Shown here in pieces: positions 1 through 48,386 of a stretch of 51,039 nt of DNA. The notes under the pieces were generated by a model, which did not search any database, was not told the origin of the DNA, and saw only the letters and a program-made list of their open reading frames with translations. The position numbers and the translations under genes were made by a program. The DNA is from a virus. The stretch lies in IMG/VR virus record IMGVR_UViG_3300007352_000004. One strand, given 5' to 3'. Position 1 is the first letter of the stretch. Each line of letters opens with the position of its first letter.

Positions 1-99
1 AACTTTCCGCGAGGCGTGACCATTCCCACAAACGAGAGCGGCGTCATGAGTGAAGAAATATCGGGCTGGGCCATTCCCAGCAACGCGCTACGCAGTGTT
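1..99. repeat. terminal 99-bp overlap identical to 50941..51039 (circular-closure signature)
   Basis: Direct comparison shows bases 1-99 equal bases 50941-51039. A minus-strand reading frame continues across the junction without a stop. Confidence 0.95.
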
Positions 100-9559: not shown

Positions 9560-11309
9560 CGGGCAGTTTTCCTTCCAGGTGGAGCTGATCGAACTCTTTG
9601 GCGAGCGAAACGGCCATCTCGCGCTGCATTTTCAGGATCGCCGGGATCAATTTCTGCATCAGGGGGTTCTTCATGGTCTGCACCTGTTGGGCCAGCGCCA
9701 TGGTTTGCTGCGAGTACTGGCTCAGGATCGACGCCATCTGGAGCAGGTTGGCCCGACTGACCTCTTTGTTGGCCCCCGGGTCCGACGCCTTGATCTCAAA
9801 CGCCGAGCGGGCCATCCTGTCCGGGGTGGCGGAGGCGAAAAAGGCCCTGATTTTCTCCGCGATTCCGTCATCAAACATGGCGATCGTGGGGTCGTCAGGC
9901 CCCCAGACCCGTTGCATCCCGAAACACGACTTGGCGATGCGGCCCGCGACTTGGCGGACATCCCGGATATTGGTGTTCTGGCGGGTGTTTTGCTCGCTCA
10001 TGACGGCCATCGTGCCGCCGGTGCCGTAGATCCCGCGCTTGTTCGAGCCGCCTTGGGCGGCCCCCTGCATCGGCCCCGAGACTCCGACGAGGCGTTCATA
10101 CAGCCCGTAGGCGTTGACTTCCTCGGTGATGGTCTCGTTGATGGCGCGGCCGAACTGGACGACGTCGAAATCGTCCATCTCGTCCACTTCCCAGACTTTT
10201 CCGGGGTAGCTATGGGTCGACGGCCCCGGGGACCGGACCCCGGCCTTCTTTTTGAACTGCGGGCCGTTGGCGATCGAGTTGTTGTCGCGGCGCTCGTTAT
10301 GGATTTTCGAGACTTCTTCCTGGCCCTGAGCGAGCAGTTTCGCCATCGAGTCGCCCCAGAACAGGTCGTCATCGGGGAATGGCCGGTAATCAACGAACAA
10401 CTCGACCCCCGGAGGGGTGGGGTCGAAGTAGATGTCCATCAGGCGGCCGGTATCGGGCTGGAGGGTGGCGACGATGGGGTAAAGTCTTGAGGGGTCCGAG
10501 GTCAGAGGGTATTCCAGGTAACACTCTACGGCCTGAAATTCCCGGTAGTGGTAGTCGGCGACCCCGGCCTCTTGCTGCTGGCGGGCCTTTTTCATGTCGC
10601 GCGGCATCATCAGGGACGATTCGAGGTCTTGTTCCGACAGGCGCCAGGGATTCTCAGGGTCAAGCACCATTCGCTTGGCGTGCTCTTCGGTGTAGCGGAT
10701 GATATGGAACTTGATCTCGAACTGGTCGATGGCATTGGCGGTGATCGGGTAGCCGTAAAAATCCTCGAACGGGACAGACATTGGCATCGGGCCGGAATAA
10801 ATCGGCACGGGTTCCGACACCGGCTCGCCTTGCTCCCAGGAGGTGACGATTTCGCGTTCGCGCTCCAGCCACGGAATCTTGACGATGGCAGTGCCGTACT
10901 TGTTGCCGCGGAACATCATGTCGCGGCACAGCTCGTAGAAGCGCCATTCCCGTTTGGCCTTGCGGTCGAGGTAGCTTTCCCCAGCCTCGCGCTGGTCGTT
11001 GGGGAAGCCCTCGACCACGATCAGGGGGTTGGTGGCGAAAATGATGTTGAGCGTGCGGGCGACGAAGGTGTCGATAAAGATTCGGATCAGGGGCACGACG
11101 ATGTTGGAGGCGTTATAGAACGGGGTCGTGCGAACCTTTTCGACGGCCTCTGCCTTGTAAGCGGAGTTCCATTTAGCGTGACTTTTGCCAAGGTGCTCTT
11201 CGCGAGCCTCTTTCGCCCGCCGGAAGTGCTCGACCAGGTAGTCTTCAAGCTCGTCCCAGCGGGCGTCGCCGGGGGAAAGCGTTGGGCGGACTATCGTGGG
11301 GGCGGGCAT
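9423..11309 (-). CDS. portal protein (podovirus head-tail connector-like)
   Basis: 628 aa, a typical size, at the head of the structural operon and followed by scaffold- and capsid-like genes. The C-terminal tail is Gly/Pro-rich. Confidence 0.75.
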   Translation of the reverse strand: MPAPTIVRPTLSPGDARWDELEDYLVEHFRRAKEAREEHLGKSHAKWNSAYKAEAVEKVRTTPFYNASNIVVPLIRIFIDTFVARTLNIIFATNPLIVVEGFPNDQREAGESYLDRKAKREWRFYELCRDMMFRGNKYGTAIVKIPWLEREREIVTSWEQGEPVSEPVPIYSGPMPMSVPFEDFYGYPITANAIDQFEIKFHIIRYTEEHAKRMVLDPENPWRLSEQDLESSLMMPRDMKKARQQQEAGVADYHYREFQAVECYLEYPLTSDPSRLYPIVATLQPDTGRLMDIYFDPTPPGVELFVDYRPFPDDDLFWGDSMAKLLAQGQEEVSKIHNERRDNNSIANGPQFKKKAGVRSPGPSTHSYPGKVWEVDEMDDFDVVQFGRAINETITEEVNAYGLYERLVGVSGPMQGAAQGGSNKRGIYGTGGTMAVMSEQNTRQNTNIRDVRQVAGRIAKSCFGMQRVWGPDDPTIAMFDDGIAEKIRAFFASATPDRMARSAFEIKASDPGANKEVSRANLLQMASILSQYSQQTMALAQQVQTMKNPLMQKLIPAILKMQREMAVSLAKEFDQLHLEGKLPDVERLLRESQQPAPPAPNGGGMGPIGGPGFMQGMAGLAPVPGQFQ

Positions 11310-14997: not shown

Positions 14998-15353
14998 CCA
15001 ACCCAACGGCGGGATTCGAGGCGTTGTCGGCATTTTTCTACGAGCACCGAGTCTCCCCGAACCACCAAAAGCTATACGACTACTACGTTAACGATCAAGA
15101 CAATCTGGAAATCCACAAGACAGACGGCTCAAAGTGGCGCGTGATCGAGTCCGAAGGCGAGTACAAATTCTATGCAATAGTGGCTTCGGATCAGCCGAGC
15201 AGGGAGAGGCTCCTGGGTGATCTTCACGAGTCCTTGCGAGCCGTCAAGCGCGGCGGGGATGCGCTCTATCATCTCCGGCTGCTGACCACAAAACTAGACG
15301 ACCTACTCGAAGAGGTGGGTAATCCAATGGGCTATCCGGGGGAGCCAAAGTAA
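14985..15353 (+). CDS. hypothetical protein, paralog 2 of a tandem pair
   Basis: An in-frame ATG at 14985 gives MSRLTNPTAGFEALSAFFYEHRVSPNHQKLYDYYVNDQDNLEIHKTDGSKWRVIESEGEY, clearly related to the preceding gene. Confidence 0.6.
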   Translation: MSRLTNPTAGFEALSAFFYEHRVSPNHQKLYDYYVNDQDNLEIHKTDGSKWRVIESEGEYKFYAIVASDQPSRERLLGDLHESLRAVKRGGDALYHLRLLTTKLDDLLEEVGNPMGYPGEPK

Positions 15354-15676
15354 TGAAACGCTTTTGGGTTCGCTGGACACAGCCCACCGAAGACGAGCGG
15401 CCAATCACATTCCCGCCGCACGAAGCCATCCTCGGATGGTGGCGGACGGGCTACACCTGCGATGCCGCGCTCGATCTACCGGTAGTGCCGATTCTATGCG
15501 CTCTGGTTGAGGCCGAAAACGCATTAGCCGCCAAGAAGGCCATCGAGCGGGAATGGCCCGAGGCGGATTTCACAAACGACAACCACTTTGCCCAAGAGAC
15601 TACGGATGCTTGGCGACCGCCCGCAGATCGCTTTCCGATACTCTCTTGGATGATTGACCGTCTCAGGCCGAAATGA
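15353..15676 (+). CDS. hypothetical protein
   Basis: 107 aa. The start overlaps the previous stop (TAATG). Confidence 0.6.
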   Translation: MKRFWVRWTQPTEDERPITFPPHEAILGWWRTGYTCDAALDLPVVPILCALVEAENALAAKKAIEREWPEADFTNDNHFAQETTDAWRPPADRFPILSWMIDRLRPK

Positions 15677-16398: not shown

Positions 16399-18096
16399 AT
16401 GGCCTTTCGCTCGATCACCGAAGTCGCCCGCCAGGGCGACGCCCAAGCCCTCATCCGCGACTGGCGCGTAAAGTCGCTGGTCTGGCCCTACTTCTTCATC
16501 AAATCCGTTCTCGGCAACCCCGACATCATCCCCCGCATCCACGGGGCCGACATCGACATGGTGCTCGGCAACCTGCGCGAAGGCGTCCGCAAACAGTTCA
16601 TCGAATGGCCGCGGCGTCATATGAAAACGTCGACGTTCACCTGCGGGCTGTCGATGTGGTTCATCCTGCCCTCGAACGACAACGATAAAGACTATGCGGT
16701 CAAACAGTTAGGCATCACCCCGGAGCGCTGGGACCAGATGGCCGCGCTGCGCAATCAGAACTACTGCCAACTCATCTGCTTTGAGACCATGGCGAACGCC
16801 CAGAAAAAGGTGGGGGAGATTCGCTGGCACTTCGAGTCGAACGAACTGTTCCGGTCGCTGTTCCCTGAAATCGCCTACACGGGCGCGGAATCGCCCTGGA
16901 ACAATGACGGCTTCCGCATCCGCCGCACCGGCATGGCCTCCAAGATCGCCGAGGGGACGTTCGACGCCGGGGGCGTGGGGGTCGCCGTCCAATCGCGCCA
17001 CTACGACCTGATCTGGCTGGATGACATCGTGGGCCAGGACGCGGCGCGCTCTGAAACCGAGATGGACAACACCCTGACCTGGGTAGGGCGGCTGACCGGC
17101 TGCGAGAAGCTCGGGGCGACCACGAAATGGTTCGGGGTGTCGAACCGCTGGGGCTTCAACGACCTGAATTCCGTGCTGCGCAGCGACCCCTCGTGGCATT
17201 TCTTCACCCGCCGGGCCTGGGACGTCGGCGAAGACGGCCTCAGGATCCCGAATTTCCCGGAGAAATACCCGCTCCCCGTTCTGGACGAAATCAAGCACCA
17301 CTTCATCTACGTCTCGCGCGAGGGCAGCGAGTCCGATTTCCTGGCCCAATGGCAGAACGATCCGCGGCCCGGCGGGGCCGCCATGATCGACCACGACCGC
17401 ATCCACCGCTATCAGGTCACCACGGGGGGCGAAATCTCCTGCTCGTGCGGCAAGACCTATCACCCGGCCAACCTCAACCGCTACCTGCTGTTTGACCCCT
17501 ATAACGCCAAGGGCAAGACGGCCTCGAAATCCCAGCCGGCCCTGGCCGTCGTCGGGCTCTCAACAGACAAACACGTCTTCCTGCTCGACATGTTCCAGAA
17601 ACGGGTCAAGCACAACGACCTGGTTGAGCGCATCTTCGGCCTGAACGACCGCTGGCAGGGAGTCGTCGCCATGGGGTACGAGGATGTCGGGGCGCAAAAC
17701 ATGTGGGAGACGCTGCTCCGGCGGGAAATGCGGTCGAGTGACTGGCGCGCGCGCCGGCACCGCGAAATCCGGCGCATCAAGGGCGTCGGGGTGTCGAACA
17801 AACCAATCGACATTCGCGTCCGGGAGTTCCTGGTGCCCTATCTGGACGCCCGGCCGGGGGTCGGGTGCTTCTCGGCCCGCGAGTCCCAGCAATTGTTCTG
17901 GGACATGCTCGAAACCTTTCCGCACCCGGTTCCGGGCCACGACTACGACTTGCTCTCAGCGCTCGCCATGGGGGCTCACCCGGACTTCCAATGGCAATTT
18001 CCGGTGTCTGACGAGGAACAGGAGCGCGATTCCAACGAAGAAGAGGAATACCTGCGGCATTTCAACATGCCCTATTCGGTGAACGCCTATGTTTAA
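16399..18096 (+). CDS. terL: terminase large subunit
   Basis: 565 aa. It has a Walker-A-like segment (PRRHMKTSTF), a Walker-B-like LIWLDDIVG, and a C-terminal nuclease-like half (ALAVVGLS...YEDVGAQ). Size and context fit. Confidence 0.8.
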   Translation: MAFRSITEVARQGDAQALIRDWRVKSLVWPYFFIKSVLGNPDIIPRIHGADIDMVLGNLREGVRKQFIEWPRRHMKTSTFTCGLSMWFILPSNDNDKDYAVKQLGITPERWDQMAALRNQNYCQLICFETMANAQKKVGEIRWHFESNELFRSLFPEIAYTGAESPWNNDGFRIRRTGMASKIAEGTFDAGGVGVAVQSRHYDLIWLDDIVGQDAARSETEMDNTLTWVGRLTGCEKLGATTKWFGVSNRWGFNDLNSVLRSDPSWHFFTRRAWDVGEDGLRIPNFPEKYPLPVLDEIKHHFIYVSREGSESDFLAQWQNDPRPGGAAMIDHDRIHRYQVTTGGEISCSCGKTYHPANLNRYLLFDPYNAKGKTASKSQPALAVVGLSTDKHVFLLDMFQKRVKHNDLVERIFGLNDRWQGVVAMGYEDVGAQNMWETLLRREMRSSDWRARRHREIRRIKGVGVSNKPIDIRVREFLVPYLDARPGVGCFSARESQQLFWDMLETFPHPVPGHDYDLLSALAMGAHPDFQWQFPVSDEEQERDSNEEEEYLRHFNMPYSVNAYV

Positions 18097-18448
18097 GCGA
18101 ATTTGCGTGATTTCCCTTGTTGTGTGGGGGCAATTGCTTTGGGGCCAGCTCAACCCGAGCCAATACTCGACCGCGGCCAACGTCCCGGTCACCAACTCGG
18201 TCGCCACCCCCATCACCTGCCCGCTCGATAGGGCTAACTTCATCCAGGTCTACATCGACCCCTCGACCACCGAACAGATTTTCACCGTCACCAACACCAA
18301 CGGCACGACCTTCAAGGTCCATTCCGGCGGCACGTATGACTTCGGCCCGATCCCGGATGAATTCTCGCTTGGCCAGACGGTGCTGTCGGTCACCACAGCC
18401 ACTGGCTCGGCCACTCTGGTTGTGATCGGCATGAGGGTCAGGCAATGA
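18089..18448 (+). CDS. small leader-bearing beta-rich protein
   Basis: 119 aa. The N-terminus MFKRICVISLVVWGQLLWGQ looks like a signal peptide. It overlaps the terL stop by 8 nt. Confidence 0.6.
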   Translation: MFKRICVISLVVWGQLLWGQLNPSQYSTAANVPVTNSVATPITCPLDRANFIQVYIDPSTTEQIFTVTNTNGTTFKVHSGGTYDFGPIPDEFSLGQTVLSVTTATGSATLVVIGMRVRQ

Positions 18449-19851
18449 CACGTCAAATCCTGTTTGCGCTGGGCCTGGGGGCGGCACTGTGCGTCGTGCT
18501 GCTCTACGGCCAGGGCGTCCGGCCGCCGTCGACGGGAGGGGGCGGCTCAGGCACCATCAGCGACGGCACCGTCACCGGCCAGACCGTTTACTGGGATGGG
18601 GACTCCTGGGAGCCTACCAGCGACCTGCTGCGTAGCACCACGAACCCAAACTACCGCTTTCTGGCGCAGGACGCGGCCCACACCCCCGTCATGGCCAAGG
18701 GCACCACGGCTCAGACGGCTCCGGTCTTTTCCGCCCGCAACGTCTCCAATCAAGACTTCTTCAAGGTCTTCGACACGGGCAAAATCTGTTGGGAAGGCGC
18801 CACGATCGACGGCACCAATATGACGTGTCTGGACATCGCGGGCGACCCGGCGGGGGCTATCAATCTCCTGCTCAGCGCCACGGCCAGCGGGACTCTGCTG
18901 TCGACCGGAGACGGGGCCCTGAATGACGACGACCTCTCGGATAACTCCCTCAACGATTTGGGGACCAAGACCGAAAACCTTCTCACGCAGCGCACCCTGG
19001 ATCTTTCGATCGCCACCGAAATCACCCTCGACACCAACGGGGACGCCACCCTGCCGTCGACAGGCGGGCACCGCAAATTCGATACCTTCGCGGACGCGGC
19101 TTCCGACACCTGGGATACGGTTGTCTGCACCGCGGGCACTTCCGGCACCGTCATGGCCGCCAATGACGCCCGCACCATTATCATCAGCGAAACCATTATT
19201 TCCAACTGGCCGCTCGATATCACGCTCGACGATGACGGCGACATCTTCAGCTGGGCCTGCCCCTCGGCCAACACGATGGTCCTGCTGTGGGTGGTCGATG
19301 AAGGCGGCCAGGGCGCGTTCAACTCTCTGCAAATCGGGGCCGCCGGCACTCCCACCAACGATACGTGGGTGACCGACGACGCTCTCCCCAGCGCCCCATC
19401 GAACGCCAACGAAATCACCCTGGCCGTCGATCGCACCAAGGGCACCTTGGCAGGCGTGCCAAACAGCGGCGATACCAAACACTGGTCCCCTTATTGGGAA
19501 GAGTGCTGGACGGTGTTTGACACCGCCGCCGACCTGACGACGGGCCTCGATGTTCCTTCCATCTGGCATTTCCAAAAGCACGCCGTCAAGGTCAATTACG
19601 TGTGGTGCGAGGTTGACGCCAACACCATAACGATCAATCTGCAACGGGACGATGGCACGGCGGCTAATCTTCTCTCGGCCGATCTGGTGTGCGACACGGG
19701 CGGCCAAACCAGTTGCGCCTCAGGCTGCGACGTCAACACCATCTCAACTTCTGAAGACGACTTCGCCATCGGGGAAGAACTCGACCTGGTAACCGTTTCC
19801 CTCGGGGCGGCCCGGAGGCTAAATCTATGTGTTTCGGGAAATTTACAATAA
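18445..19851 (+). CDS. leader-bearing Thr/Gly/Asp-rich protein (fibre- or adhesin-like)
   Basis: 468 aa. The N-terminus MTRQILFALGLGAALCVVLLYGQG looks like a signal peptide. ATGA coupling to the previous gene. Confidence 0.6.
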   Translation: MTRQILFALGLGAALCVVLLYGQGVRPPSTGGGGSGTISDGTVTGQTVYWDGDSWEPTSDLLRSTTNPNYRFLAQDAAHTPVMAKGTTAQTAPVFSARNVSNQDFFKVFDTGKICWEGATIDGTNMTCLDIAGDPAGAINLLLSATASGTLLSTGDGALNDDDLSDNSLNDLGTKTENLLTQRTLDLSIATEITLDTNGDATLPSTGGHRKFDTFADAASDTWDTVVCTAGTSGTVMAANDARTIIISETIISNWPLDITLDDDGDIFSWACPSANTMVLLWVVDEGGQGAFNSLQIGAAGTPTNDTWVTDDALPSAPSNANEITLAVDRTKGTLAGVPNSGDTKHWSPYWEECWTVFDTAADLTTGLDVPSIWHFQKHAVKVNYVWCEVDANTITINLQRDDGTAANLLSADLVCDTGGQTSCASGCDVNTISTSEDDFAIGEELDLVTVSLGAARRLNLCVSGNLQ

Positions 19852-20567
19852 TGACGGGGTTCTGGAAATATTCAGTGGCTTTATTCCTCCTAACCCAATC
19901 GCTGTGGGGCCAGGGGAAGTTCATCTACAACCCGGTTACGAGTACTTCTGTCACGGCAGGAGATTACAACAACACATCATCGGAGATGACTGCTACTTCC
20001 GCAGTCAGCGCGGATATTGCAGTTACCATCTTTGCTCATGTTATCCTCGACGATGTATCGGCGGGCACAGATGCGATAGCCGCTATATCTCAAGCGGACT
20101 CTAGTGGAGACTATGTACGACTAACAAGAGTAACAGCGCAGATTCGTTGCACGGTTAACGATGAAGTATTCGGCAGTGCGGCCGCCGTCCATGGAGATTC
20201 CCTTTCTGCTTCAGTCAAAGAAAAGGTTGGATGCATTTCCGTTTCCGCTGCTAGCCGCTTTGCTTGCGCGAACGGTACTTGCGTGGAGAACACCAGCAAC
20301 CTAGTCGGGCCTTTTGGCTTCAATCGGACAACTATCGGAGTTCTAACTCAAGCTGCCGAAGCATTTTTCTTTGATGGAAAGATTCGAGAGGTCTGTTATT
20401 GGGATACCGCTCTTAGCACTACCGACTACGCCAATTATGAATCCGGGGCGTCCTCATGTGAAGATCTCGGGGCCGACCACATCTACCGCGCGGCCAGTGG
20501 AACGGATTTGGGGGACGTGGGCGGAGTGGACCTAACCCCGACCGACGTGACGGAGGTTGCGTGGTAG
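19851..20567 (+). CDS. leader-bearing LamG / concanavalin-A-like lectin domain protein
   Basis: N-terminus MTGFWKYSVALFLLTQSLWGQG. The C-terminal FFFDGKIREVCYWDTALSTTDY matches the LamG hallmark (F-x-G-x-I-D/E-E-V-x-h-W...LS). The gene is visibly AT-richer than its flanks. An alternative ATG lies at 19827. Confidence 0.6.
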   Translation: MTGFWKYSVALFLLTQSLWGQGKFIYNPVTSTSVTAGDYNNTSSEMTATSAVSADIAVTIFAHVILDDVSAGTDAIAAISQADSSGDYVRLTRVTAQIRCTVNDEVFGSAAAVHGDSLSASVKEKVGCISVSAASRFACANGTCVENTSNLVGPFGFNRTTIGVLTQAAEAFFFDGKIREVCYWDTALSTTDYANYESGASSCEDLGADHIYRAASGTDLGDVGGVDLTPTDVTEVAW

Positions 20568-20828
20568 TCGACCAACCGCGATCAGCCAAACCATCGCGAG
20601 CGCGGACACGGCAAAGCACGCGCAGAGCACCAGCGCATTCTCGCAGGCGCTCCACAGGCGGGGCGGGGAATAACCGAACGAAGCGCGATCGGGATAGGCG
20701 TTCCAATACCGCTCATCCAGCAGCCGCTTGGACTCCTGGTCTATGGCGCTGTCGAGCGGATAGGGACCGAGGGACCACCAGCGAATGACGGCGAGCCAGT
20801 AACGGAGCATAGTGAGGCGATTATACAC
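20532..20828 (-). CDS. antisense-oriented Trp-rich protein with a C-terminal TM segment
   Basis: 98 aa (MLRYWLAVIRWW...LVLCACFAVSALAMVWLIAVG). A TATAAT hexamer lies just upstream of the internal ATG at 20810. It is the only leftward gene inside the rightward operon. Confidence 0.5.
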   Translation of the reverse strand: MYNRLTMLRYWLAVIRWWSLGPYPLDSAIDQESKRLLDERYWNAYPDRASFGYSPPRLWSACENALVLCACFAVSALAMVWLIAVGRLPRNLRHVGRG

Positions 20829-20848
20829 CCGGAATCAGGCGTGATTTG

Positions 20849-21229
20849 ATGCAAAAGCAGTGGCTTGCACTTTTGATTTGGACGGCGACGGCTTTTGCCC
20901 AGGACGCCCGCGTCACCCTGGCTCCGGCGGCCACCCCGCCGAGCGATGTCGTGCTGGAAATCTACGACGACCGGGCCAAACCGCCAGTGATTCAACTGCG
21001 GGCCAGCGGTGAAGTCCTGGTCCGCTCCGGCGTGACCCTGACCGAAGCCTCGCAAATCTTCTGGCGCGAGGCAGGCAAAACGTTCACGGCCCTTGCGCCA
21101 GCGCCCGCGCCCTGCCCGCCCGTGCCCGTGGTGGAGCCGGAGAAGCACAGGTGCGTGCCGAGTGAGTACCTGAAGGACGAAGCGCGGCTGTGCTCCTTGC
21201 GGACGCCAGAGGATGTAGGGAAGCCATGA
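20849..21229 (+). CDS. secreted/periplasmic-type small protein
   Basis: Classical leader MQKQWLALLIWTATAFA|QD with an AxA site. The C-terminal half is Pro/Ala-rich. Confidence 0.6.
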   Translation: MQKQWLALLIWTATAFAQDARVTLAPAATPPSDVVLEIYDDRAKPPVIQLRASGEVLVRSGVTLTEASQIFWREAGKTFTALAPAPAPCPPVPVVEPEKHRCVPSEYLKDEARLCSLRTPEDVGKP

Positions 21230-23628
21230 TGCGCCGCTTTCTTTCGCTACTGCTCGTCGAGATCCTGCTGGGCCTGCCCCTTGTGGGCCAAACGCGCCTC
21301 ACCGGAAGGCAGACCGTGGCGGGCCGGACGACCATTTCCCAAGTCGCCGACGCGGGCGCTCCCCCGGTGGGCGCTGGAACTATTGAAGTGCTGGTCATCT
21401 CGGAACTCGCCGGCACCTCGACGGACGAGCAGAAGAAAGACACCGCTCCGGCCATCTTCAAACGCATCAACAACGAAGTCTCCTCGGTTCTGAACAACCC
21501 TGCGGTCTATACGGATGTAGCAGTCGGCTCCAGCCACATCGCCAGGGTAGAGAATCTACCGGCCTTCTCCTATCCCTACGGGACCTGCACGGGGGCGGGC
21601 TGTATGCCCGCCTCTTTCCCATCCACCCCGACCTGTACCTTCGGGGCGACGGGCGGCGGGGTCGGGGAGTGCTCCACCGCTGCCAACATCTCCGTCAGCG
21701 ATGGCGTTATCACCCGAGTCGTCTTCAAGGCGGATGGGATCAGCAACTACCAGGGCAACGGAACGAACAGCGGCGCAACGATAGGAGGCCGTGATGAGGC
21801 TCCTATCGCGGTCACCAACGAGAGCTGTTCCGGGGCTGGCTCGCTTCAGGAGGCCTTTAACACCGCGCGCGATGGGGGAGGAGGCTGGATTTACTTGGAC
21901 CCGGACACGTTCGGCATTGGCGGCGATTGGGAGATCACCTGCACGTCCCTGCACACCAATGAGGGGCTCTGGATTTCCGGCTCCAACATCACGGTCGATC
22001 TAAGCTCCGTCAGGACCAGGATGATCCGGGACACGCAGCTTCGGATAGACCCTCGTATTGCGGGCACAAGCACCTGTGTCGACACGCATGAGAACGGGAT
22101 TGTGCGAAACGTCAATCTCTGGAGCACCAATACCGCTTTGGGGATGAATGTGATGCTGGTAACTCGGGGCTCAAGCGCTACCAGGTGTCCCGACATGCTG
22201 GAAGACCCACGGCACTGGATCATCACCCACAACACTCTCACGCGCCAGTATCCATCAGGGGATATCGAAGATACCCTGACTTTCGACAGCGCCTTGGCCG
22301 CAGCTGGAGGCGAGCCCCTTCGCAACTACACCTTTGCCAACAACCTGTTGAACCGTAACTCGTCCGGCACTGGCATCAACATGCAAGGGCAAGTTTTTAA
22401 TAACCAGTTTTTCCACAACGTTGTCACAAAGTTTGTGGGCCGTGTTCCAGAGGTTGTTACTGTCGGCACGGAAAGTGGCGGCACGCCCTCTCCCGAGTTT
22501 CAAACCGACTGGACCCAAAACGTAGTTGGGATGGGGATCAACACGGCCGGCTCGGCCTTTTACGCTCTTATCTTCAGAAACGCCTGGGCGCAGCTGCATG
22601 AGAATTGGTACGTCGGTCTGGATGAGCTGAACGGCGCGGCCTCCCGAAGGGCTTTGGATTCTCACTGTATTAACTTGAACACTGGATTAGATAGCGAATC
22701 CTTTAGCTCGTGCAACGCCTTCACAGCCAAAACCGGAGTCGCCGACGGCAACGTCTTCTCCAACGACATGATGTGGTCACGCTATAACGTGAATTTCCCC
22801 AAGGTCTACCTGGAGGACTGGAGCATCTCGGGAAGCGCCGGGGTGAGAACAGCGAATTTGGCTGCTATCACTCCCTACAACGCCAATAACTGGGAGAACG
22901 CCAAAGCCATCCTGCAAAGAGCAGGGAGCCGCCCCTTGACGGCGGAAGCCGTGGCCGATGTCGATGAACTGTGGGCAGAGGTTGTCGCTTCTCAACCCAT
23001 CACGACCGTCGACGACGACGCGGAAGTCGACTTCAGCCAGTGGAACACGCAAGGGCATCTGTCGATCTCCACCGATACTGCCGTCAGCGGCACCAAGTCG
23101 TTTAAGTCCTCGACCTCAGGCGGGGATGCGATTCTGGTTCAAGGCCAAACGGCTATCAACAATTTCTTTAATACCCGTATCCGCCGCACGGGCACCTGCC
23201 CTGCTTCCGACACCCCGATTGCGATCTTCAAGGACGCCTCCGACGCGGAAGTGTTCCGCCTGGAATTCAACGCGACCGATTGCCGCATCTATCTGGACCG
23301 CAGCGGCACGGAGACGCTGCTGGGCAGCGCCATGGCGATCGACACCTGGTACCACCTGAGGGCCATGTTTCGCCAGCGGTTCACTTCAGGGACCTGTGAT
23401 ACAACCTTCAGTGTTGTCGACGGGGATTGCAACAAGCTCGCGGCGGCCATGAGGGATGGCGGAACTGCCCGCGCCAATAAGCAGCTTCTCTATCAGAACT
23501 TTGGCGGGTCTGGTCCTGTCATCAAGTCCATCACGATTCCGCAGGCCCCGGCGAGTTTCACCTTTTACCTGGACGACGTAGGCGTCAGCCCGGTTCATTT
23601 TTGCGACCAGATGGGGTGCGCGGAATGA
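21226..23628 (+). CDS. leader-bearing beta-helix (polysaccharide lyase/hydrolase-like) protein with a C-terminal ConA/LamG-like domain
   Basis: MMRRFLSLLLVEILLGLPLVGQ leader, with ATGA coupling. PbH1-like turns are present (LWISGSNITVD, IVRNVNLWSTN, IITHNTLTR, FANNLLNRN, NNQFFHNVV). The C-terminal WYHLRAMF...FYLDDVGVS is typical of LamG/CBM-like folds. Confidence 0.6.
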   Translation: MMRRFLSLLLVEILLGLPLVGQTRLTGRQTVAGRTTISQVADAGAPPVGAGTIEVLVISELAGTSTDEQKKDTAPAIFKRINNEVSSVLNNPAVYTDVAVGSSHIARVENLPAFSYPYGTCTGAGCMPASFPSTPTCTFGATGGGVGECSTAANISVSDGVITRVVFKADGISNYQGNGTNSGATIGGRDEAPIAVTNESCSGAGSLQEAFNTARDGGGGWIYLDPDTFGIGGDWEITCTSLHTNEGLWISGSNITVDLSSVRTRMIRDTQLRIDPRIAGTSTCVDTHENGIVRNVNLWSTNTALGMNVMLVTRGSSATRCPDMLEDPRHWIITHNTLTRQYPSGDIEDTLTFDSALAAAGGEPLRNYTFANNLLNRNSSGTGINMQGQVFNNQFFHNVVTKFVGRVPEVVTVGTESGGTPSPEFQTDWTQNVVGMGINTAGSAFYALIFRNAWAQLHENWYVGLDELNGAASRRALDSHCINLNTGLDSESFSSCNAFTAKTGVADGNVFSNDMMWSRYNVNFPKVYLEDWSISGSAGVRTANLAAITPYNANNWENAKAILQRAGSRPLTAEAVADVDELWAEVVASQPITTVDDDAEVDFSQWNTQGHLSISTDTAVSGTKSFKSSTSGGDAILVQGQTAINNFFNTRIRRTGTCPASDTPIAIFKDASDAEVFRLEFNATDCRIYLDRSGTETLLGSAMAIDTWYHLRAMFRQRFTSGTCDTTFSVVDGDCNKLAAAMRDGGTARANKQLLYQNFGGSGPVIKSITIPQAPASFTFYLDDVGVSPVHFCDQMGCAE

Positions 23629-24806
23629 GACTGCTTCTATTGCTCATCCCCATGCTGCTATGGCCCCAGACTCGCATCACCGGGTCACGGACTATTAGTG
23701 GTAGCCATCTCCTCACTATCGCGCCAGAAGACCTCGCTGCTCCACCGGCGGGCGTTACCATCGAGCAACTTACCAGCAGCGCGGAACTGCCGACCGCCTG
23801 CGCCATTGCTTATTACGATACGCCCGCTTGGTCGGCCTCGCGCAGCCAGTTGGTGGTCGGTTGCGGCGAAGGTATAGGGTCGCCGCCCTTCAGCTCCTTT
23901 GACTGGAAGGCCTGGACCATGAATCTGGACGGGACCGGGGCCACGCAACTATCGACCAAGCGCATCAATGATCCGTGGGGCTGGACGCCCGACGGGGATA
24001 AGATTTACTTCCGGTCAGCCGGAATGGCCATCATGGACCCCGATACCGGGCTATGGGAAGTCAAGATCGCCGATGTCGTCTCAGGCAATCTTTGTAAGGT
24101 CGGCGCGAATCTGTTCGCTATCTATGAAGTCCCGGCCGTTGATAACACCATAGGGGTTTGGCGATCAACCGACGGCGGGGACACTTTTTCGGTCTACGCC
24201 AGCTACGAGATGGACGATCCCTACCCGACTTACTCCTTCCATCGGCTGAGAAGTAGTTGCGTTGATCTTGACGCCGATGGCGACCCGGACCTGTTCTATT
24301 ACAAAAAGAGTTGCGGGAACGGTTGCGGCTCCTTCACCTTCAACGCCAATACAGGAGTGAGCACGCAGTTTACTTTTAGCGGCGACACCGTTCCAGAGTT
24401 GAATCACCCCGATGTCTTCCCGAGCGCCGCGACCGTATATGGTGGGTGGCTGGTAGCAGGGGGCGGGAGCCCTGGCATTGGGTATATCTATCCCTTCAAC
24501 CTGCAAACGGGAGTCGCGGGAACGGCCTTGAATCTCGGCCAGTGGTCCAACTGGACCTATCGCAGCGGCTCGACAGGCGTCGCTACCGGCCAGCTCGCGA
24601 TGAGCAAGTCCACCATCCCTCGGGATATCGGGCTGTACACGATCGCCACCAACACCCTGGAATTCAGCTACAAATGGACAAACCCGGTGGGCTGTACCTA
24701 CTGGTGCGAAATCGCGCCGCAGATGGTTTCAACCAACGTCTTTATCATGCGCGCCCCGGATTCCGATGGGATGACTCAAATCTGGAAGGTGACCTATAGC
24801 CCATGA
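23625..24806 (+). CDS. leader-bearing beta-propeller protein with Asp-box (BNR) and PD40-like motifs
   Basis: MRLLLLLIPMLLWPQ leader, with ATGA coupling. STDGGDTF fits the Asp-box S-x-D-x-G-x-T-W/F. WTPDGDKIYFRS resembles PD40/TolB-type repeats. Confidence 0.55.
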   Translation: MRLLLLLIPMLLWPQTRITGSRTISGSHLLTIAPEDLAAPPAGVTIEQLTSSAELPTACAIAYYDTPAWSASRSQLVVGCGEGIGSPPFSSFDWKAWTMNLDGTGATQLSTKRINDPWGWTPDGDKIYFRSAGMAIMDPDTGLWEVKIADVVSGNLCKVGANLFAIYEVPAVDNTIGVWRSTDGGDTFSVYASYEMDDPYPTYSFHRLRSSCVDLDADGDPDLFYYKKSCGNGCGSFTFNANTGVSTQFTFSGDTVPELNHPDVFPSAATVYGGWLVAGGGSPGIGYIYPFNLQTGVAGTALNLGQWSNWTYRSGSTGVATGQLAMSKSTIPRDIGLYTIATNTLEFSYKWTNPVGCTYWCEIAPQMVSTNVFIMRAPDSDGMTQIWKVTYSP

Positions 24807-25297
24807 CCATCGACCGCAAACGCATGGACATCCTTTGTGAGATCGGCGGGCGTGCCCTGAATCTACCGCCCGACATTGATCCGGTGCGGTTCCTCAAGGC
24901 CCTTGCGACGGTCGAAACAAGCTACGGCCAGAACTGCGTGCCGCGTTACGAGAAGTCCTACGATTGGGGCGGCAAGAATGCCGATACGAACCTGCTCAGC
25001 CAGTACGGCGATTGGGCCGCGTGCAGCTACGGGCCTTTTCAGGTGATGTTTCCCAACTGTGCCCGAATGCTCCCCGGCATTGATCCGGTCGCCATGCAGC
25101 TAGCGCCGGAATCGGGGCTGCTTTGCGCGGTCCACTTCATCAACCTGGAAATCATCGGACGCCAGAAGGCCACGACGCTGGAAGCCATCGCGGACGCTTA
25201 CAACAGTGGGAACTGGCACGACAGTTTTGTGCCGACCCAATATGTCGGCAAGCTCGTTGGGGCCTACGGGAATTTCGAGAACACGATTCTGACTTAA
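24803..25297 (+). CDS. lysozyme-like / lytic transglycosylase endolysin candidate
   Basis: The motifs VETSYG (catalytic Glu-Ser), GPFQVM and AYNSG match the three SLT-domain motifs (ES, GLMQ, AYNAG). ATGA coupling to the upstream gene. Confidence 0.6.
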   Translation: MTIDRKRMDILCEIGGRALNLPPDIDPVRFLKALATVETSYGQNCVPRYEKSYDWGGKNADTNLLSQYGDWAACSYGPFQVMFPNCARMLPGIDPVAMQLAPESGLLCAVHFINLEIIGRQKATTLEAIADAYNSGNWHDSFVPTQYVGKLVGAYGNFENTILT

Positions 25298-25307
25298 CGG
25301 AGTAATT

Positions 25308-25856
25308 ATGGCAACACCGCATTACGCAAACGTTCCCGAGACTTGGAAGGCCGGGCCTCCGCACTTCGGCATGTACCGCCAAGCCCCCGCTGAATTCGGC
25401 GGGGAGTGGTGGTTCATCAGCCCCTTCAACCAGAAGCCGTGGCTGACGCTCGTGCCGAAAAAGCTCCCGCCCGGCTTTCTGGAAACCTTCGGCCCGGAGC
25501 CGCCGAAAGCGGCCTCGCACTGGCAGGAGTGGCACGACAACCTGAGGGACTTCAAGCAGGCTGGCGTGCCGCCCGGCGTGGACCCGGCCAAGATCGAACA
25601 GGCCACGCAGTCAATGGTCGCCTGGGGTATGGGCAAGCCCGCCTTCTATGAAGGCCGCTACGGCTGGGCCGCGCGATTCCCCGAGCAGATGTTCTGGGAC
25701 TTTGATGCGCCGGGCGTGTCATGGCTGGGGAACCCGGACTGGAAGATTGCGGAGTGGCAGTCACGCATGATCGCAGAGGGTGTCATGCCGGAGAAGATTC
25801 ACCCTTACGTGCCGCACCACATTCTACCCAAAGAGAAACAGGAAAACCCTACGTAG
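25308..25856 (+). CDS. Trp-rich hypothetical protein
   Basis: 182 aa with a GGAG SD. Confidence 0.6.
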   Translation: MATPHYANVPETWKAGPPHFGMYRQAPAEFGGEWWFISPFNQKPWLTLVPKKLPPGFLETFGPEPPKAASHWQEWHDNLRDFKQAGVPPGVDPAKIEQATQSMVAWGMGKPAFYEGRYGWAARFPEQMFWDFDAPGVSWLGNPDWKIAEWQSRMIAEGVMPEKIHPYVPHHILPKEKQENPT

Positions 25857-25881
25857 CCCCGGAGAAGCGGGGCGTACTTTT
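25856..25881 (+). terminator. intrinsic-terminator-like hairpin
   Basis: GCCCCG-GAGAAG-CGGGGC is followed by GTACTTTT, starting in the stop codon of 25308..25856. Confidence 0.4.
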
Positions 25882-25891
25882 GAAGGTGAGC

Positions 25892-26170
25892 ATGAACCCA
25901 ATCAAAGCAATCGCATCCCTGCCCGGCAAGGCCGTCCGGTCAGTCGCGCGCAAGGTCTGGGCGGGCTCGGCCGGCGCTGGCTTCGGCGTCCCGGTGGCCA
26001 AAGTCGCGCTGTGGTTTCTCACGGACCCCAAGTACGGCAACGTGCAGTTCCCGCCCGACATCGCCGAGAACGTCGCGCTCCTGATCGAAATGGGCGTGAC
26101 GGCCCTGGTGGCGCTGGTGGCGGGCTATGCCACGACGGAGAGGGAACTGGATGAGACCCCAGGCACCTGA
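25892..26170 (+). CDS. two-TM holin-like membrane protein
   Basis: An in-frame ATG at 25892 gives MNPIKAIASLPGK... Hydrophobic segments are GAGFGVPVAKVALWFL and VALLIEMGVTALVALVAGYA, and the C-terminus is charged. Confidence 0.45.
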   Translation: MNPIKAIASLPGKAVRSVARKVWAGSAGAGFGVPVAKVALWFLTDPKYGNVQFPPDIAENVALLIEMGVTALVALVAGYATTERELDETPGT

Positions 26171-26283
26171 CCCCGAGCGAAAGGCCCCCGACCGGGAAAT
26201 GCCCGACCGTGAATTACAGCCGCGTGGCAGGCCAGGCTCTTGGGGCTTTATCCGTAATGCGACAGGGCCGATGACGCTGGAGC

Positions 26284-26706
26284 GTGAGTCCGATGAACCA
26301 ACCACCTAGCCCCGGCGACATCATCCGCCACGTCCCGCGCCCGCGCCCCTCGCTCGGCAGGCTGCGGGTGGAGTCGGTCAGGGGCGATTCGGTGCTGGCG
26401 CGGAGCCTGGATGTGGGCGCTGAGGGCGCGATGTTCGAGTTGCCCCTGGAGGAAGTGGAAGGGGATAAGGCGGTCGCTGAGCAGCTTGCCCGCATCAAGG
26501 AAAACTGCGCGAGCGCCGGGTGGGATTCCTACGGCGCTGCGCCCGTCAGCGACGCCGCCCTAGCCGCAGTTCCCCGCATCCTGGAGGTCATCGGACAAAC
26601 GCCATGGATCGTGCCTTGCAACGATGGCGGCGTGCAGTTTGAGTGGCACAGCGGCGATATCGACATCGAGATTGCGTTCGGTCCCGACGGCAGGCAGTGT
26701 GAATGA
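26284..26706 (+). CDS. hypothetical protein
   Basis: 140 aa with protein-like composition. Confidence 0.55.
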   Translation: MSPMNQPPSPGDIIRHVPRPRPSLGRLRVESVRGDSVLARSLDVGAEGAMFELPLEEVEGDKAVAEQLARIKENCASAGWDSYGAAPVSDAALAAVPRILEVIGQTPWIVPCNDGGVQFEWHSGDIDIEIAFGPDGRQCE

Positions 26707-26873
26707 CCACCCGTGAGATCATCGCCGCCATCATCGCCTTGGCGTCAACCTGCATGGCGGGCTACACCGAGTTGAAGTGCTCCGATACCGTGCGGCAGGC
26801 GGTTCAGGAACAGCGCGAGGCGGATTTTCGCAACTTGGAGGTGATCGTGGACATTGCCCAAGGGAGAAGGTGA
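26703..26873 (+). CDS. small N-terminally hydrophobic protein (56 aa)
   Basis: ATGA overlap. Hand translation gives MTTREIIAAIIALASTCMAGYTELKCSD... A Cys follows the hydrophobic stretch, but this is not a canonical lipobox. Confidence 0.45.
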   Translation: MTTREIIAAIIALASTCMAGYTELKCSDTVRQAVQEQREADFRNLEVIVDIAQGRR

Positions 26874-26930
26874 AAAGGAAACGCCCCCAGCGCTTTCACG
26901 ATGAGGGCGAATCCCGGAGACTGATGAAAA

Positions 26931-27557
26931 ATGTTGCTTGGGGGATTCTACCACACGGGTGAGCGGATCATGATGAGAATCTTTTGGGCTGTCGCCATCC
27001 TGGCCATCGGGTTCATACTCGCCGGTGTTCTCTCTGGTTTGCTCCAGGCCCAGATGGTCTCGCTCAACCAGGAGCAAATCCGTATCACCGCCTGGCCCAT
27101 CGAATCCGACCTCAAGGACCTTCACCAATACCACGCCATCATCCAGTCGCCGTCCATGGTGCACATCTCGGGCAACATCCTGCTGGCCGAACTCGCGGAG
27201 TTGTCGCCGGTGCCCACGACCAAGCTGATCTGGACCGGGGAGCGCAACAACCGCCGCAGCCTGCGGGCGAAGGTGGACCGCGTTGACAAGTTCGCCGTCC
27301 CCGGCATCGCGGCCGCGCTCACGGCTTTCTCGGAAGGCATCAACGGCTATTGGAAGGCCGGGATCGCCGCGCTCGGATTCGCGTACCCTTACATCAAGGA
27401 TTGGTTCAACCTCGCGGCACCCCCGCCCTGGGTTCCGCCGGCGGACTTGGCCCCCATTGCGCCCATCCCTTTGGATCAGCAGGGAACGGCAGGGGTGTCG
27501 CTGTATTCGTACAAAGACATCGGCTCCGTAACACGGGTCATCGAGGTGCGAAGGTGA
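26931..27557 (+). CDS. N-terminally anchored membrane protein
   Basis: 208 aa with TM segment IFWAVAILAIGFILAGVLSGLL. A GGAGA SD is present. An alternative ATG lies at 26970. Confidence 0.55.
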   Translation: MLLGGFYHTGERIMMRIFWAVAILAIGFILAGVLSGLLQAQMVSLNQEQIRITAWPIESDLKDLHQYHAIIQSPSMVHISGNILLAELAELSPVPTTKLIWTGERNNRRSLRAKVDRVDKFAVPGIAAALTAFSEGINGYWKAGIAALGFAYPYIKDWFNLAAPPPWVPPADLAPIAPIPLDQQGTAGVSLYSYKDIGSVTRVIEVRR

Positions 27558-28027
27558 TTAACGCTCTTGCTTGGGCCATGACGCCCATCCTGATGCCGCT
27601 CCTGACGGGTATCTGGCCCGTCTGGATCCGCCGCCTGCCCCATACAGCCCTTGTCTGGGCGCTGCTGGGCGTTCCGCTGGTGCTGTGGAGCCAGGAAGGG
27701 CGGGGAGCCTGGGCGCAGCAGATCGAACGCCGCGTGGAGTCGCTGGAAGACTGGCGCGACGCCAACCGCGACCTGATGGCCGTGCAGGCCAGCATCAACG
27801 CCCAAAACTCGCAGTCGATCGCCAAACTCGCTGCCATTGCCGAAGACCACGAGAAGCGCCTACTGATCGTTGTCAATACCGGCGAGACGATGGTTCGGGT
27901 GGGGGGTTGGGCCATCTTCGCCGTGCCGGTGCTGGCCGCGCTGCTAAACGCCATTTTCAACTACTTCATGTTCCGGCGGCAGGAAAGGCGCAACGGGAAC
28001 GGCGGCGGGAAGATCCACGCGCCTTAG
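27554..28027 (+). CDS. membrane protein (N-terminal TMs, coiled coil, C-terminal TM)
   Basis: The GTG at 27554 overlaps the upstream TGA, and an alternative ATG lies at 27578. Features are WPVWIRRL...LVWALLGVPLVLW, then a coiled-coil-like QQIERRVESLEDWRD..., then GGWAIFAVPVLAALLNAIF. Confidence 0.5.
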   Translation: MINALAWAMTPILMPLLTGIWPVWIRRLPHTALVWALLGVPLVLWSQEGRGAWAQQIERRVESLEDWRDANRDLMAVQASINAQNSQSIAKLAAIAEDHEKRLLIVVNTGETMVRVGGWAIFAVPVLAALLNAIFNYFMFRRQERRNGNGGGKIHAP

Positions 28028-29411: not shown

Positions 29412-29961
29412 GGTGGCAACGGCGGAGTTGCGGCAATCTTCGGACGCTTCCCCGGCCTTCCGTACGGAGCGCGGGGCCAGCCGAACCCTCCCCGTAGGTT
29501 CGTCCCCCGTTCTCCGCAAGGGTATGGCGTCTTCCCCCTCGCCGTACCCAACCCAAGCTGCGAGTACGGTTCACGGCATCGAGTCGTACTCGCAGCCCCA
29601 ACCGCAGACGCTTTTCCCTGTTTCCCAAGAGGACTTTCGGCTGCAAGTCGTTGCCGTCATGGGGCTTGACCTGGATGATTGCGGCGAGCGCGGATTATCG
29701 CGTGCACAGGTTGCCGACGCCATGGATGTGAAGCTCCCAACGCTTGATTCGTGGCTCGCCCAGACGCGCACCGATCGCAACATCCCCGTGGCCCAGGGGC
29801 CTGACTGGGTTCGGGCGACGGGTTCGCGGCGGCTGTTGGAATGGTTCGCGGCCCAGGTTGGCCTGCGCCTTGTCGAGCCCCACGTCGCTGAGATCGGCGA
29901 GGCCTACATCGCCGTCCAGCAGGCCAAGGCTCGGTTGCGGGATTTGACGGAGGTTGCGTGA
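29371..29961 (+). CDS. HTH protein upstream of the integrase (excisionase or regulator candidate; start uncertain)
   Basis: The C-terminal half contains LSRAQVADAMDVKLPTLDSWL (HTH-like). The N-terminal third is Ser/Pro-rich. In-frame alternative starts are a GTG at 29413 and an ATG at 29524. The stop overlaps the integrase start. Confidence 0.5.
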   Translation: MPLLLSPVWLEASKVATAELRQSSDASPAFRTERGASRTLPVGSSPVLRKGMASSPSPYPTQAASTVHGIESYSQPQPQTLFPVSQEDFRLQVVAVMGLDLDDCGERGLSRAQVADAMDVKLPTLDSWLAQTRTDRNIPVAQGPDWVRATGSRRLLEWFAAQVGLRLVEPHVAEIGEAYIAVQQAKARLRDLTEVA

Positions 29962-31202
29962 CGGCGCGGAACGCAAGTCATAGACTGGTGGGACTTCTCT
30001 CTCAAGGAGGTCTCACCGAAGACATGCGACGCAAATTCCGTCAGCTCGGCCATCTCTTAATCGAGAACGGCAAGTGGAAGGTCCGTTTCCGCAAGTGGGT
30101 CGTCGCGGACGGCCGCGCCAAACGCATCCAGGCCAAGGAAACCATCGGCGAGGCGACAGGCCCCCGCGCCATCACCCGCCAAGACGCGGTGATCCTCGCT
30201 TGGCACCTGTATCTGAAGTACCAGAATCACGACGCCGAAGTGGTCTGCACTGTCGGCGAGTTCTACGTCAAGGTGTTCTGCCCCGAGCACTGCCGCAACC
30301 TCAAGCCCGGCAGTCGCGCGGACTACCAGACGCGCTGGCGGATCTGGGTGGAGCCTGTCCTGGGCCAGATCCTGTTGACGCAGGTCAAGCGCGAAGACGT
30401 CCAGCGCATCATCGGCAGCGTCCTCGCGGCGGGTCGCAGCGTGCAAACTGCCGCCCACGTCCGCAAGCTGATCCAGGCGCTATTCACGGCGGCGAAGAAG
30501 AAGGGCTGGTACGTCAACGAAAACCCCGCGGCCGCGATCGACCTGCCCGAGATGGAGCGCCGCCCCGCCATGGCCTACACCCACGAGCAGGCACGGCGAA
30601 TCCTGGAGGCGCTGGCGTCGCCTGTCCGCGAGGCCGTGCTGCTCTCGCTGACCACGGGCCTGGGGCCGGCGGAGTTCCGCGGCCTGCGGCTGGACTGCCT
30701 GAACCTGACGCCCGAGCCGCAAATCACGGGCGGCGAGGCGCTGCCGCCGTTCTCGCTCGCGGTGCGGCGGAACTTCTACCTGGGCGAGTACGGCAGCCCC
30801 AAGACGAAACAGCGCCGCCGTATCGTGCCCCTGCTGCCGGCGGTGGCCGACGCCCTGCGGGGACTGCTGCGGCGCGAGCGGTTCGCGGCGTCTGATGACC
30901 CGGTGTTCTGCGGCGCGACCGGCAGGCCCATCGACACCCACAACGTGAGCAACCGCGTGTTTGGCCCGCTGGCGAAGGCCCTGGGGTTCCCGGTGACCTG
31001 GTACGCCCTGCGGCATACGCACGCGACGTGGTGCGACCTGGCCGACATGCCGCTGACCGACCGCATGATTACGATGGGGCACGCGCGGGCCGCGATGACG
31101 CTCAACTATACGCACGTCGACGTGGAGCGGCGGCGCGAGTCGCTGCTGCTGGCGGCGGGAAGCCTGACGGAGAGGGTGGATTCGAAAGGAGCGGTGAATT
31201 GA
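29958..31202 (+). CDS. int: tyrosine recombinase / phage integrase
   Basis: 414 aa with the catalytic signature elements: TTGLGPAEFRGLRL (Arg I), WYALRHTHATW (H-x-x-R) and MGHARAAMTLNYTH (His...Tyr). Confidence 0.85.
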   Translation: MTARNASHRLVGLLSQGGLTEDMRRKFRQLGHLLIENGKWKVRFRKWVVADGRAKRIQAKETIGEATGPRAITRQDAVILAWHLYLKYQNHDAEVVCTVGEFYVKVFCPEHCRNLKPGSRADYQTRWRIWVEPVLGQILLTQVKREDVQRIIGSVLAAGRSVQTAAHVRKLIQALFTAAKKKGWYVNENPAAAIDLPEMERRPAMAYTHEQARRILEALASPVREAVLLSLTTGLGPAEFRGLRLDCLNLTPEPQITGGEALPPFSLAVRRNFYLGEYGSPKTKQRRRIVPLLPAVADALRGLLRRERFAASDDPVFCGATGRPIDTHNVSNRVFGPLAKALGFPVTWYALRHTHATWCDLADMPLTDRMITMGHARAAMTLNYTHVDVERRRESLLLAAGSLTERVDSKGAVN

Positions 31203-48377: not shown

Positions 48378-48386
48378 AAAGACCTC

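Follow-up and report, generated by a model that had tools for sequence, protein, structure and literature searches.

We have analysed a 51,039-bp stretch of viral DNA (IMG/VR record IMGVR_UViG_3300007352_000004; hereafter the window), a complete phage genome in which six consecutive open reading frames (ORFs), O1-O6, occupy positions 18089-24806 between terL, the gene for the large terminase subunit, and the lysis genes. All six begin with a hydrophobic leader that is followed by Gln, and their sequences make it very probable that O1-O6 are true substrates of the Sec pathway and signal peptidase I (SPase I) and are exported. Assembly of tailed-phage virions takes place in the cytoplasm, and one does not expect to find cleavable export signals on receptor-binding proteins. 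Throughout the uncultured family to which this phage belongs, Sec leaders appear to be placed on the products of the most variable late genes, which are lectin-, depolymerase- and tail-fibre-like, and the leaders of this cassette appear tuned to a host-specific cleavage rule. We propose, tentatively and with slightly less than an even chance of being right in full, that the cassette encodes exported, disulfide-folded factors which stay free of the virion and target glycans.

Leader Peptides of the Cassette Proteins

The N-termini read MFKR-ICVISLVVWG↓Q in O1, MTR-QILFALGLGAALCVVLLYG↓QG in O2, MTGFWK-YSVALFLLTQSLWG↓QG in O3, MQK-QWLALLIWTATAFA↓QD in O4, MMRR-FLSLLLVEILLGLPLVG↓QT in O5 and MR-LLLLLIPMLLWP↓QT in O6 (↓ marks the predicted cleavage point). 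An earlier note on this DNA had described six leader-bearing ORFs with these N-termini, and both the sequence and the GC content at third codon positions (GC3) confirm them: in-frame GC3 is 0.70-0.80 in the cassette ORFs, with the exception of O3 (0.52), and this strong frame-specific signal indicates that the six ORFs are real. We judged the leaders by criteria for Sec/SPase-I signals, namely a basic n-region, an uncharged hydrophobic core of 7-15 (up to ~20) residues and small residues at positions -3 and -1. A Lys or Arg precedes an uncharged core of 11-18 residues in all six proteins, and five of the six leaders have Gly or Ala at -1 and Leu, Val or Ala at -3. By the positive-inside rule, basic residues ahead of the core predict that the bulk of the protein lies outside. 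Gln stands at +1 in 6/6 leaders of the window.

The leader is a trait of the whole family, as emerged from the synteny comparison with related phages that the earlier note had called for. In the window and nine related genomes, a hydrophobic leader was called in 38/42 cassette genes, compared with 23/169 other genes (Fisher p=2e-21); the test behind this call is one crude hydrophobicity criterion, applied alike to cassette and other called genes, and the cassette count stood at 35/38 before two of the genomes were added. Most of the 23 non-cassette genes that pass encode membrane proteins of the lysis module, and within the window comparable N-terminal hydrophobicity is found outside the cassette only in two or three lysis-region or membrane ORFs. 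Across the family, [AGSTP]Q falls directly at the end of the core in 22 of 32 leaders (~70%) against a background of 11% in equal-length windows taken from the mature parts (p=2.6e-14). Alignment A2 of the O1 family shows leaders that vary in both length and sequence ahead of a conserved mature domain of ~95 aa.

A preference for Gln at +1 is known as the Q-rule of Bacteroidetes, in which ~71% of SPase-I substrates carry Gln at this position and cyclise it to pyroglutamate (Bochtler et al. 2018, PMC5837995); the frequency is high in Ignavibacterium too (PMC5837995, PMC10653852). The [AGSTP]Q share of the cassette leaders matches the Bacteroidetes figure. As a lead, the signature would point to a host in Bacteroidota or in a clade that shares the rule, the surveys having covered few phyla.

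Other export signals were considered and rejected. The lipobox of lipoproteins (signal peptidase II substrates), L-[AS]-[GA]-C, occurs in 0/6 leaders of the window. The twin-arginine translocation (Tat) motif S/T-R-R-x-F-L-K is absent, with RR found only in O5 (MMRRFLS), where the spacing is off, and single Lys or Arg residues in the others. The cargo domain of the type IX secretion system (T9SS; Por_Secre_tail/TIGR04183) is missing from all six proteins in Pfam and NCBIfam searches, and a pilin-like signal was rejected from the O1-O6 sequences. In one relative (L005), a cassette gene at 15261-15581 carries a lipobox (LSG↓C).

The mature proteins are rich in Cys, which makes up 2.13% of mature cassette proteins as opposed to 0.83% of other phage proteins (2.6 times; p=1e-7), and the number of Cys is even in 30 of the 35 complete leader-bearing proteins (p=1.1e-5). 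As a control, the window's non-cassette proteins comprise 13 with an even number, 13 with an odd number and 11 without Cys. High, even Cys counts are typical of disulfide-bonded extracytoplasmic proteins, and the enrichment and parity in the cassette suggest disulfides here as well. Altogether, four independent signals in the sequences (the shape of the leaders, Gln at +1, variable leaders ahead of a conserved mature domain in the O1 family, and Cys enrichment with even parity) lead us to read the N-termini as export signals, and Sec-type leaders on a coupled late run of genes, as the earlier note had put it, are well supported.

A Hypervariable Cassette Shared by Related Phages

We compared the neighbourhoods of nine terL homologs and 17 IMG/VR loci. 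In L001, L002, L003, L005 and L022-L026, terL is followed by two to six ORFs, nearly all of them leader-bearing, and then by endolysin- and holin-like genes, the order in L024-L026 being terS-terL-cassette-(lysis)-portal-capsid. In the distant relatives L014 and L020, terL abuts the portal gene and large leader-bearing proteins follow the capsid gene instead. BLASTP found no match for O2-O6 in the cassette of any relative, and no conserved N-terminal docking domain was seen in the mature N-termini that were compared; between the window and L022, whose terL products are 85% identical, the O2 proteins have only leader-GQGVR in common.

The relatives' cassettes encode Malectin (5e-9), LamG and Pect-lyase_RHGA_epim (3e-8, in a leader-bearing protein of L020) domains as well as weak chondroitinase-B and FN3-like matches. 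Their second-position genes, which fill the O2 slot, share a start of the form leader-QG[IV]-Gly-rich and in some cases have collagen-like repeats; those of L003 and L001 match the PHROG tail fiber (1.2e-5) and tail protein (3.5e-8) families phrog_33904 and phrog_4900, and a second-position protein resembles the C-terminus of a Rhodococcus phage tail fibre. Taken together, the cassette is a hypervariable module that looks glycan-oriented and partly tail-fibre-like. The glycan-binding or glycan-degrading character that the earlier note had ascribed to the cassette thus finds backing in the relatives and, below threshold, in O3; the assignments made for O5 and O6 were not confirmed (see below).

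Layout and Expression of the Cassette

The transcription unit opens with terL (16399-18096, plus strand), whose identity as proposed in the earlier note is borne out by a match to phrog_38 (E=4.6e-32). O1 overlaps terL by 8 nt (ATGTTTAA), ATGA overlaps link O1 to O2, O4 to O5, O5 to O6 and O6 to the next gene, and O2 and O3 meet at TAATG. The coupling that had been described therefore holds at five of six junctions, with overlaps of 1-8 nt; what had been missed is the sole break in the cassette, where 281 nt with a minus-strand ORF (20532-20828, 98 aa) lie between O3 and O4. This reverse-strand ORF has a GC3 of 0.74, a C-terminal hydrophobic stretch and no family match, and may be a separately expressed moron. 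In L001, a leader-bearing reverse-strand ORF (17276-17857) ends the cassette. For O5 and O6, longer alternatives with GTG/TTG starts exist (at 21190 and 23601, respectively); we consider the ATG starts within the ATGA overlaps the likelier ones, and the hydrophobic core stays near the N-terminus with either start.

Downstream of O6, and joined to it by an ATGA overlap, lies a plus-strand gene (24803-25297) for a 164-aa protein without a leader, which the earlier note had called lysozyme-like. It occupies the slot in which relatives hold a Hydrolase_2 endolysin, and the protein itself matches nothing in Pfam, PHROG, NCBIfam or PDB. The last gene of the unit (25308-25856, plus strand) encodes a conserved 182-aa protein with 38% identity to the product of the post-endolysin gene of L005, and a terminator-like GC hairpin with six G-C pairs (GCCCCGGAGAAGCGGGGC) and, after it, a T run (GTACTTTTGA) at 25856-25873 on the plus strand probably closes the terL-to-lysis unit. 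No promoter-like site was found on the plus strand inside the cassette. Given this arrangement, O1-O6 are predicted to be expressed late and to be translationally coupled from terL through the lysis genes.

The Individual Cassette Proteins

O1 (18089-18448, plus strand, 119 aa) consists of a leader of 14 residues (18089-18130), or of 19 residues (18089-18145) if a second WGQ site is used, and a beta-sandwich of ~95 aa. It is the only conserved member of the cassette; L001, L002, L003, L005, L022 and L023 have a homolog (37-56% identity) immediately behind terL. An AlphaFold2 (AF2) model with a predicted local distance difference test score (pLDDT) of 79 has a helix at residues 4-19 and an eight-strand sandwich. 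Foldseek searches with it against PDB and BFVD returned only generic jelly-roll and cupin matches (template modelling (TM) scores of 0.45-0.57), so that no function follows from the model, and sequence and profile searches of PDB with the O1 family gave no match.

O2 (18445-19851, plus strand, 468 aa) has a leader of 22 residues (18445-18510) ending LYG↓QG, with a core of 18 residues that comes near transmembrane length, and a mature part with a GGGGSG linker and 10 Cys; it matches no family and no PDB entry. None of O1-O6 matches PHROG, and O2, O5 and O6 also had no tblastn match in a database of 50,697 phage records.

O3 (19851-20567, plus strand, 238 aa; 6 Cys) carries a leader of 20 residues (19851-19910) with the site LWG↓QG. 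The LamG signature claimed in the earlier note is weakly supported here: the match to Laminin_G_3 (PF13385) covers nearly the full profile (positions 6-148 of 151) at E=7.9e-4, but its 20 bits lie below the cut-off of 27.6, and hhalign comparison with the LamG proteins of relatives was not significant. The profile match is consistent with a LamG/ConA-like lectin fold. The GC3 of O3 (0.52) stands apart from the 0.7-0.87 of the remaining genome and suggests a recent import into the cassette.

O4 (20849-21229, plus strand, 126 aa; 3 Cys) has a leader of 17 residues (20849-20899) with a textbook AFA↓QD site, and no family match was found in Pfam (E<=10) or NCBIfam.

O5 (21226-23628, plus strand, 800 aa; 16 Cys), with a leader of 21 residues (21226-21288) ending LVG↓QT, is an orphan that matches only itself among 5.8 billion clusters; among 1.84 billion representative proteins, four weak partial matches were found to residues 38-244. 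The PbH1-type beta-helix and ConA-like C-terminus that had been read into this protein were not confirmed, as no Pfam or NCBIfam family matches even at E<=10 and PDB gave no match, and a single-sequence AF2 model (pLDDT 34) was unusable. Its N-terminal part (residues ~38-244; 21226-21960) contains a small Cys-rich domain, YGTC..GC..SFPSTP.C, common to a few large metagenomic proteins (P0105-P0107) and not named by Pfam. The motif VTN..SG.GSL..A, the sole lead towards a beta-helix, was read by eye and not confirmed by Pfam; it also occurs in the weak homologs P0106 and P0107. At least one of these proteins, P0107, has a leader of its own that ends SAA↓Q.

O6 (23625-24806, plus strand, 393 aa; 8 Cys) has a leader of 14 residues (23625-23666) with the site LWP↓QT, and a PDB search gave no match. 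Of the features previously assigned to it, the PD40 repeats did not hold up (a single stretch at a non-significant E=0.056), and the Asp-box comes down to one motif, STDGGDTF at residue 181, which arises in 0.5% of shuffles of the O6 sequence and is not repeated. O5 and O6 have in common a 38-aa module directly after the leader (44% identity, E=0.001).

Proposed Role and Its Alternatives

The sequences show how the leaders are built, that the trait is kept across the family, Gln at +1, Cys enrichment with even parity, coupling to terL and the lysis genes, and hypervariability; export with cleavage, disulfides, glycan targets and a role outside the virion are what we infer. O1-O6 would be made late from the coupled terL-cassette-lysis unit and translocated by Sec, and the leader would be cut at the junction of small residue and Gln, leaving an N-terminal Gln, which is likely to be converted to pyroglutamate, as happens in Q-rule hosts. 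The Cys-rich mature parts would then fold with disulfides in the periplasm. Remaining outside the virion, the proteins may act in soluble or envelope-associated form on host surface glycans or extracellular polysaccharide around the time of lysis; such action could destroy or mask receptors and clear the matrix, so that progeny escape instead of being lost on debris. A non-virion role is suggested because Sec export takes the proteins out of the compartment in which virions are assembled, because no docking domain is conserved even between phages with 85%-identical terL, because the cassettes include a lipoprotein, small non-fibre proteins and reverse-strand ORFs, and because a conserved protein of 310 aa, leaderless and beta-helix-like, is already encoded in the structural block (described below).

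Several points weigh against this account. The leader calls follow heuristic sequence criteria, and O6 is non-canonical, with Pro at -1. The cassette is present in every family member examined, with proteins of up to 1463 aa, and the tail-fibre matches, collagen-like repeats and pectate-lyase-like domain of the relatives have the look of a receptor-binding module and not of an optional accessory. The rest of the complete genome contains nothing hypervariable enough to set host range, and enzymes released by lysis would not strictly require a leader.

The strongest alternative, which we consider rather unlikely, is that the cassette proteins are receptor-binding proteins (RBPs), i.e., fibres, spikes or depolymerases, which are Sec-exported, cleaved and oxidatively folded in the periplasm, and which might dock onto the cytoplasmic particles only after the holin has breached the inner membrane or after lysis, possibly with O1 as an adaptor. 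Like the fibre and tailspike-depolymerase modules of podophages (T7 gp17, P22 gp9 and multi-spike phages), the cassette adjoins lysis and terminase genes, is extremely variable among close relatives, and features lectin and beta-helix-type domains and collagen-like or Gly-rich hinges. It is found in all relatives examined and invariably belongs to a late or structural operon, where it follows terL or, in L014 and L020, the capsid gene; the PHROG tail matches of L003 and L001, the similarity to the Rhodococcus phage tail-fibre C-terminus, the Pect-lyase_RHGA_epim domain of L020 and the post-leader module common to O5 and O6 all fit this explanation. Fibres and spikes are, moreover, able to join particles in vitro, as in P22 and T4. 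In contrast, canonical RBPs have no signal peptide, are Cys-poor and possess a conserved N-terminal virion-docking domain, whereas in the cassette proteins the leader is the sole conserved N-terminal feature, even among close relatives, and the Cys content is high and even. O2-O6 of the window match no tail family, a leaderless beta-helix-like protein is available within the structural block, the cassettes contain a lipoprotein and small proteins, and our literature searches found no precedent for Sec-exported tail fibres that bear signal peptides. A scheme of two-compartment assembly, in which RBPs as true Sec substrates are exported, cut before Gln, capped with pyroglutamate and folded with disulfides in the periplasm, and join the podovirus particles after holin action with the O1 jelly-roll as a possible adaptor, appears about as unlikely to us.

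The consequences differ between the two possibilities. Should the proteins act as free factors, they would form a large group of phage enzymes for "exit" or surface remodelling that has not been described before, and from which stable glycan binders with disulfide bonds could be drawn; should they be part of the virion, its assembly has to take place in two compartments, something new for Caudoviricetes. On either reading, Gln at +1 offers a clue, from sequence data alone, to the host clade of uncultured phages, and the Cys-parity test is a cheap means of recognizing exported phage proteins.

We regard as improbable a role of the genes as morons, be it in superinfection exclusion or, as the earlier note had suggested, in lysogenic conversion; their exported products would alter or mask the host surface when expressed from a prophage. 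Late operons are well known to harbour genes for exported moron proteins (lambda Lom and Bor, T5 Llp), and like these and Cor the cassette proteins carry signal peptides, would act on the envelope and are encoded amid morphogenesis genes; the genome also has an integrase (29958-31202), O3 looks foreign by its GC3, and a reverse-strand ORF interrupts the cassette. However, such morons are small genes that occur singly, often have a promoter to themselves and are expressed in lysogeny or early, whereas the cassette is multi-genic, translationally coupled, late, rich in very large proteins and present in all family members. With overlapping junctions that begin inside terL and no internal plus-strand promoter-like site, expression should track the late operon, which makes lysogenic-conversion factors unlikely. 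The same cassette occurs, besides, in relatives with lytic-looking replication modules (DNA polymerase A, QueC), and six large genes are many for exclusion.

More improbable still is that the hydrophobic N-termini are uncleaved anchor or adaptor helices of ordinary fibres assembled in the cytoplasm. Phage structural proteins are known to give false positives of the SignalP type (PMC10367356), the relatives' proteins are homologous to tail fibres, the O2 core is nearly long enough to span a membrane, and O6 has no canonical residue at -1. Yet a docking helix should keep its sequence, and the leaders diverge over the conserved mature domain of the O1 family; an uncleaved helix also gives no reason for Gln to come next and accounts neither for the 70% share of Gln at +1 nor for the even number of Cys, and the basic n-region predicts an N-in, C-out topology. 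That the leader pattern is due to chance or faulty gene calling can be dismissed for practical purposes, since some ambiguity over alternative start codons is all that speaks for it, against a Fisher p=2e-21 and a binomial p=3e-14 across ten genomes and a strong in-frame GC3.

Comparison with Exported Phage Proteins

The closest precedent for the cassette is found in the "Nixviridae" prophages of Porphyromonas gingivalis, in which five scattered genes encode proteins with Q-rule signal peptides, their function not being known (Matrishin et al. 2023, PMC10367356). Both systems encode Sec/SPase-I leaders that expose an N-terminal Gln, which points to adaptation to the export and pyroglutamate system of the host. 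No sequence homology between the two emerged, though no test was aimed at it. Unlike the scattered genes of these siphophage-like prophages of Bacteroidota, the cassette is a coupled run of two to six genes that keeps its place, between terL and the genes for lysis or the portal, throughout a family of high-GC podophages; what it encodes is hypervariable and resembles tail fibres or lectins, and export is backed by Cys parity.

Sec-dependent lysis proteins, namely signal-peptide and signal-anchor-release (SAR) endolysins and o-spanin lipoproteins, are likewise made late and use the host Sec system before lysis. These are peptidoglycan hydrolases or spanins with defined roles in lysis, whereas the cassette proteins have no hydrolase or spanin signature and the adjoining slot holds a leaderless endolysin candidate. 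What is new here is a fixed, coupled, late multi-gene cassette common to a phage family, its tail-fibre- and lectin-like content, and the use of parity as evidence for export.

Genome and Phage Family

An exact 99-bp direct repeat at both ends of the window (1-99 and 50941-51039) indicates that it represents a complete, circularly assembled genome of ~50.94 kb. The minus strand carries a podovirus-type structural block with an SU10-like portal (9423-11309; PF23899, 5e-11), the capsid gene (6276-7184; PF25209, 1e-16) and a virion or head-closure-like protein of 536 aa. The block continues across the circular junction with three consecutive large proteins of 964, 466 and 718 aa (44083-50543, minus strand), which have no Cys and a G/A/Q/P-rich composition; one of them weakly matches phrog_6651 (internal virion protein), and the three are probably ejection proteins. 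The plus-strand gene set includes the tyrosine integrase, a GroES/Cpn10 homolog (41960-42373; 4e-11), a protein with a DnaA C-terminal helix-turn-helix (38587-39060) and an HNH protein (38976-39524).

Among the 50,697 phage records, we found no close cultured phage: identities of 21-34% are the most that terL, portal and capsid attain, and the phages concerned have unrelated hosts. When 185,579 species genomes were scanned for prophages with a terL profile, the only match was a spurious archaeal one; exact look-ups of proteins encoded by the window matched no record, and O1-based scans of IMG/VR and JGI metagenomes added no contig beyond one already in the set. There are 103 terL homologs, many of them on contigs of 45-52 kb, and the phage belongs to an uncultured family of high-GC, ~50-kb SU10-like podophages. 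Some relatives encode GTP cyclohydrolase I, PTPS and QueC (L002, 617-2897; L024, 2269-2949; L025, 918-1607), a 7-deazaguanine DNA modification set of which nothing was seen in the window.

Directly after the capsid gene lies the gene for the leaderless 310-aa protein (5169-6101, minus strand), which is kept in all relatives at 28-37% identity (alignment A3). Searches of Pfam, NCBIfam and PDB with the sequences of this protein and its family gave no match; read by eye, the sequence resembles a right-handed beta-helix (NPFASIDYAIGR...DVILVMPGH...), which makes the protein a candidate virion spike or decoration.

The ORFs of the lysis region (25892-28027) carry transmembrane or signal-like segments at the N-terminus. 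The core of one of these, a 195-aa ORF at 26970-27557, ends LLQA↓Q, and thus other exported proteins of this phage would obey the Gln rule too.

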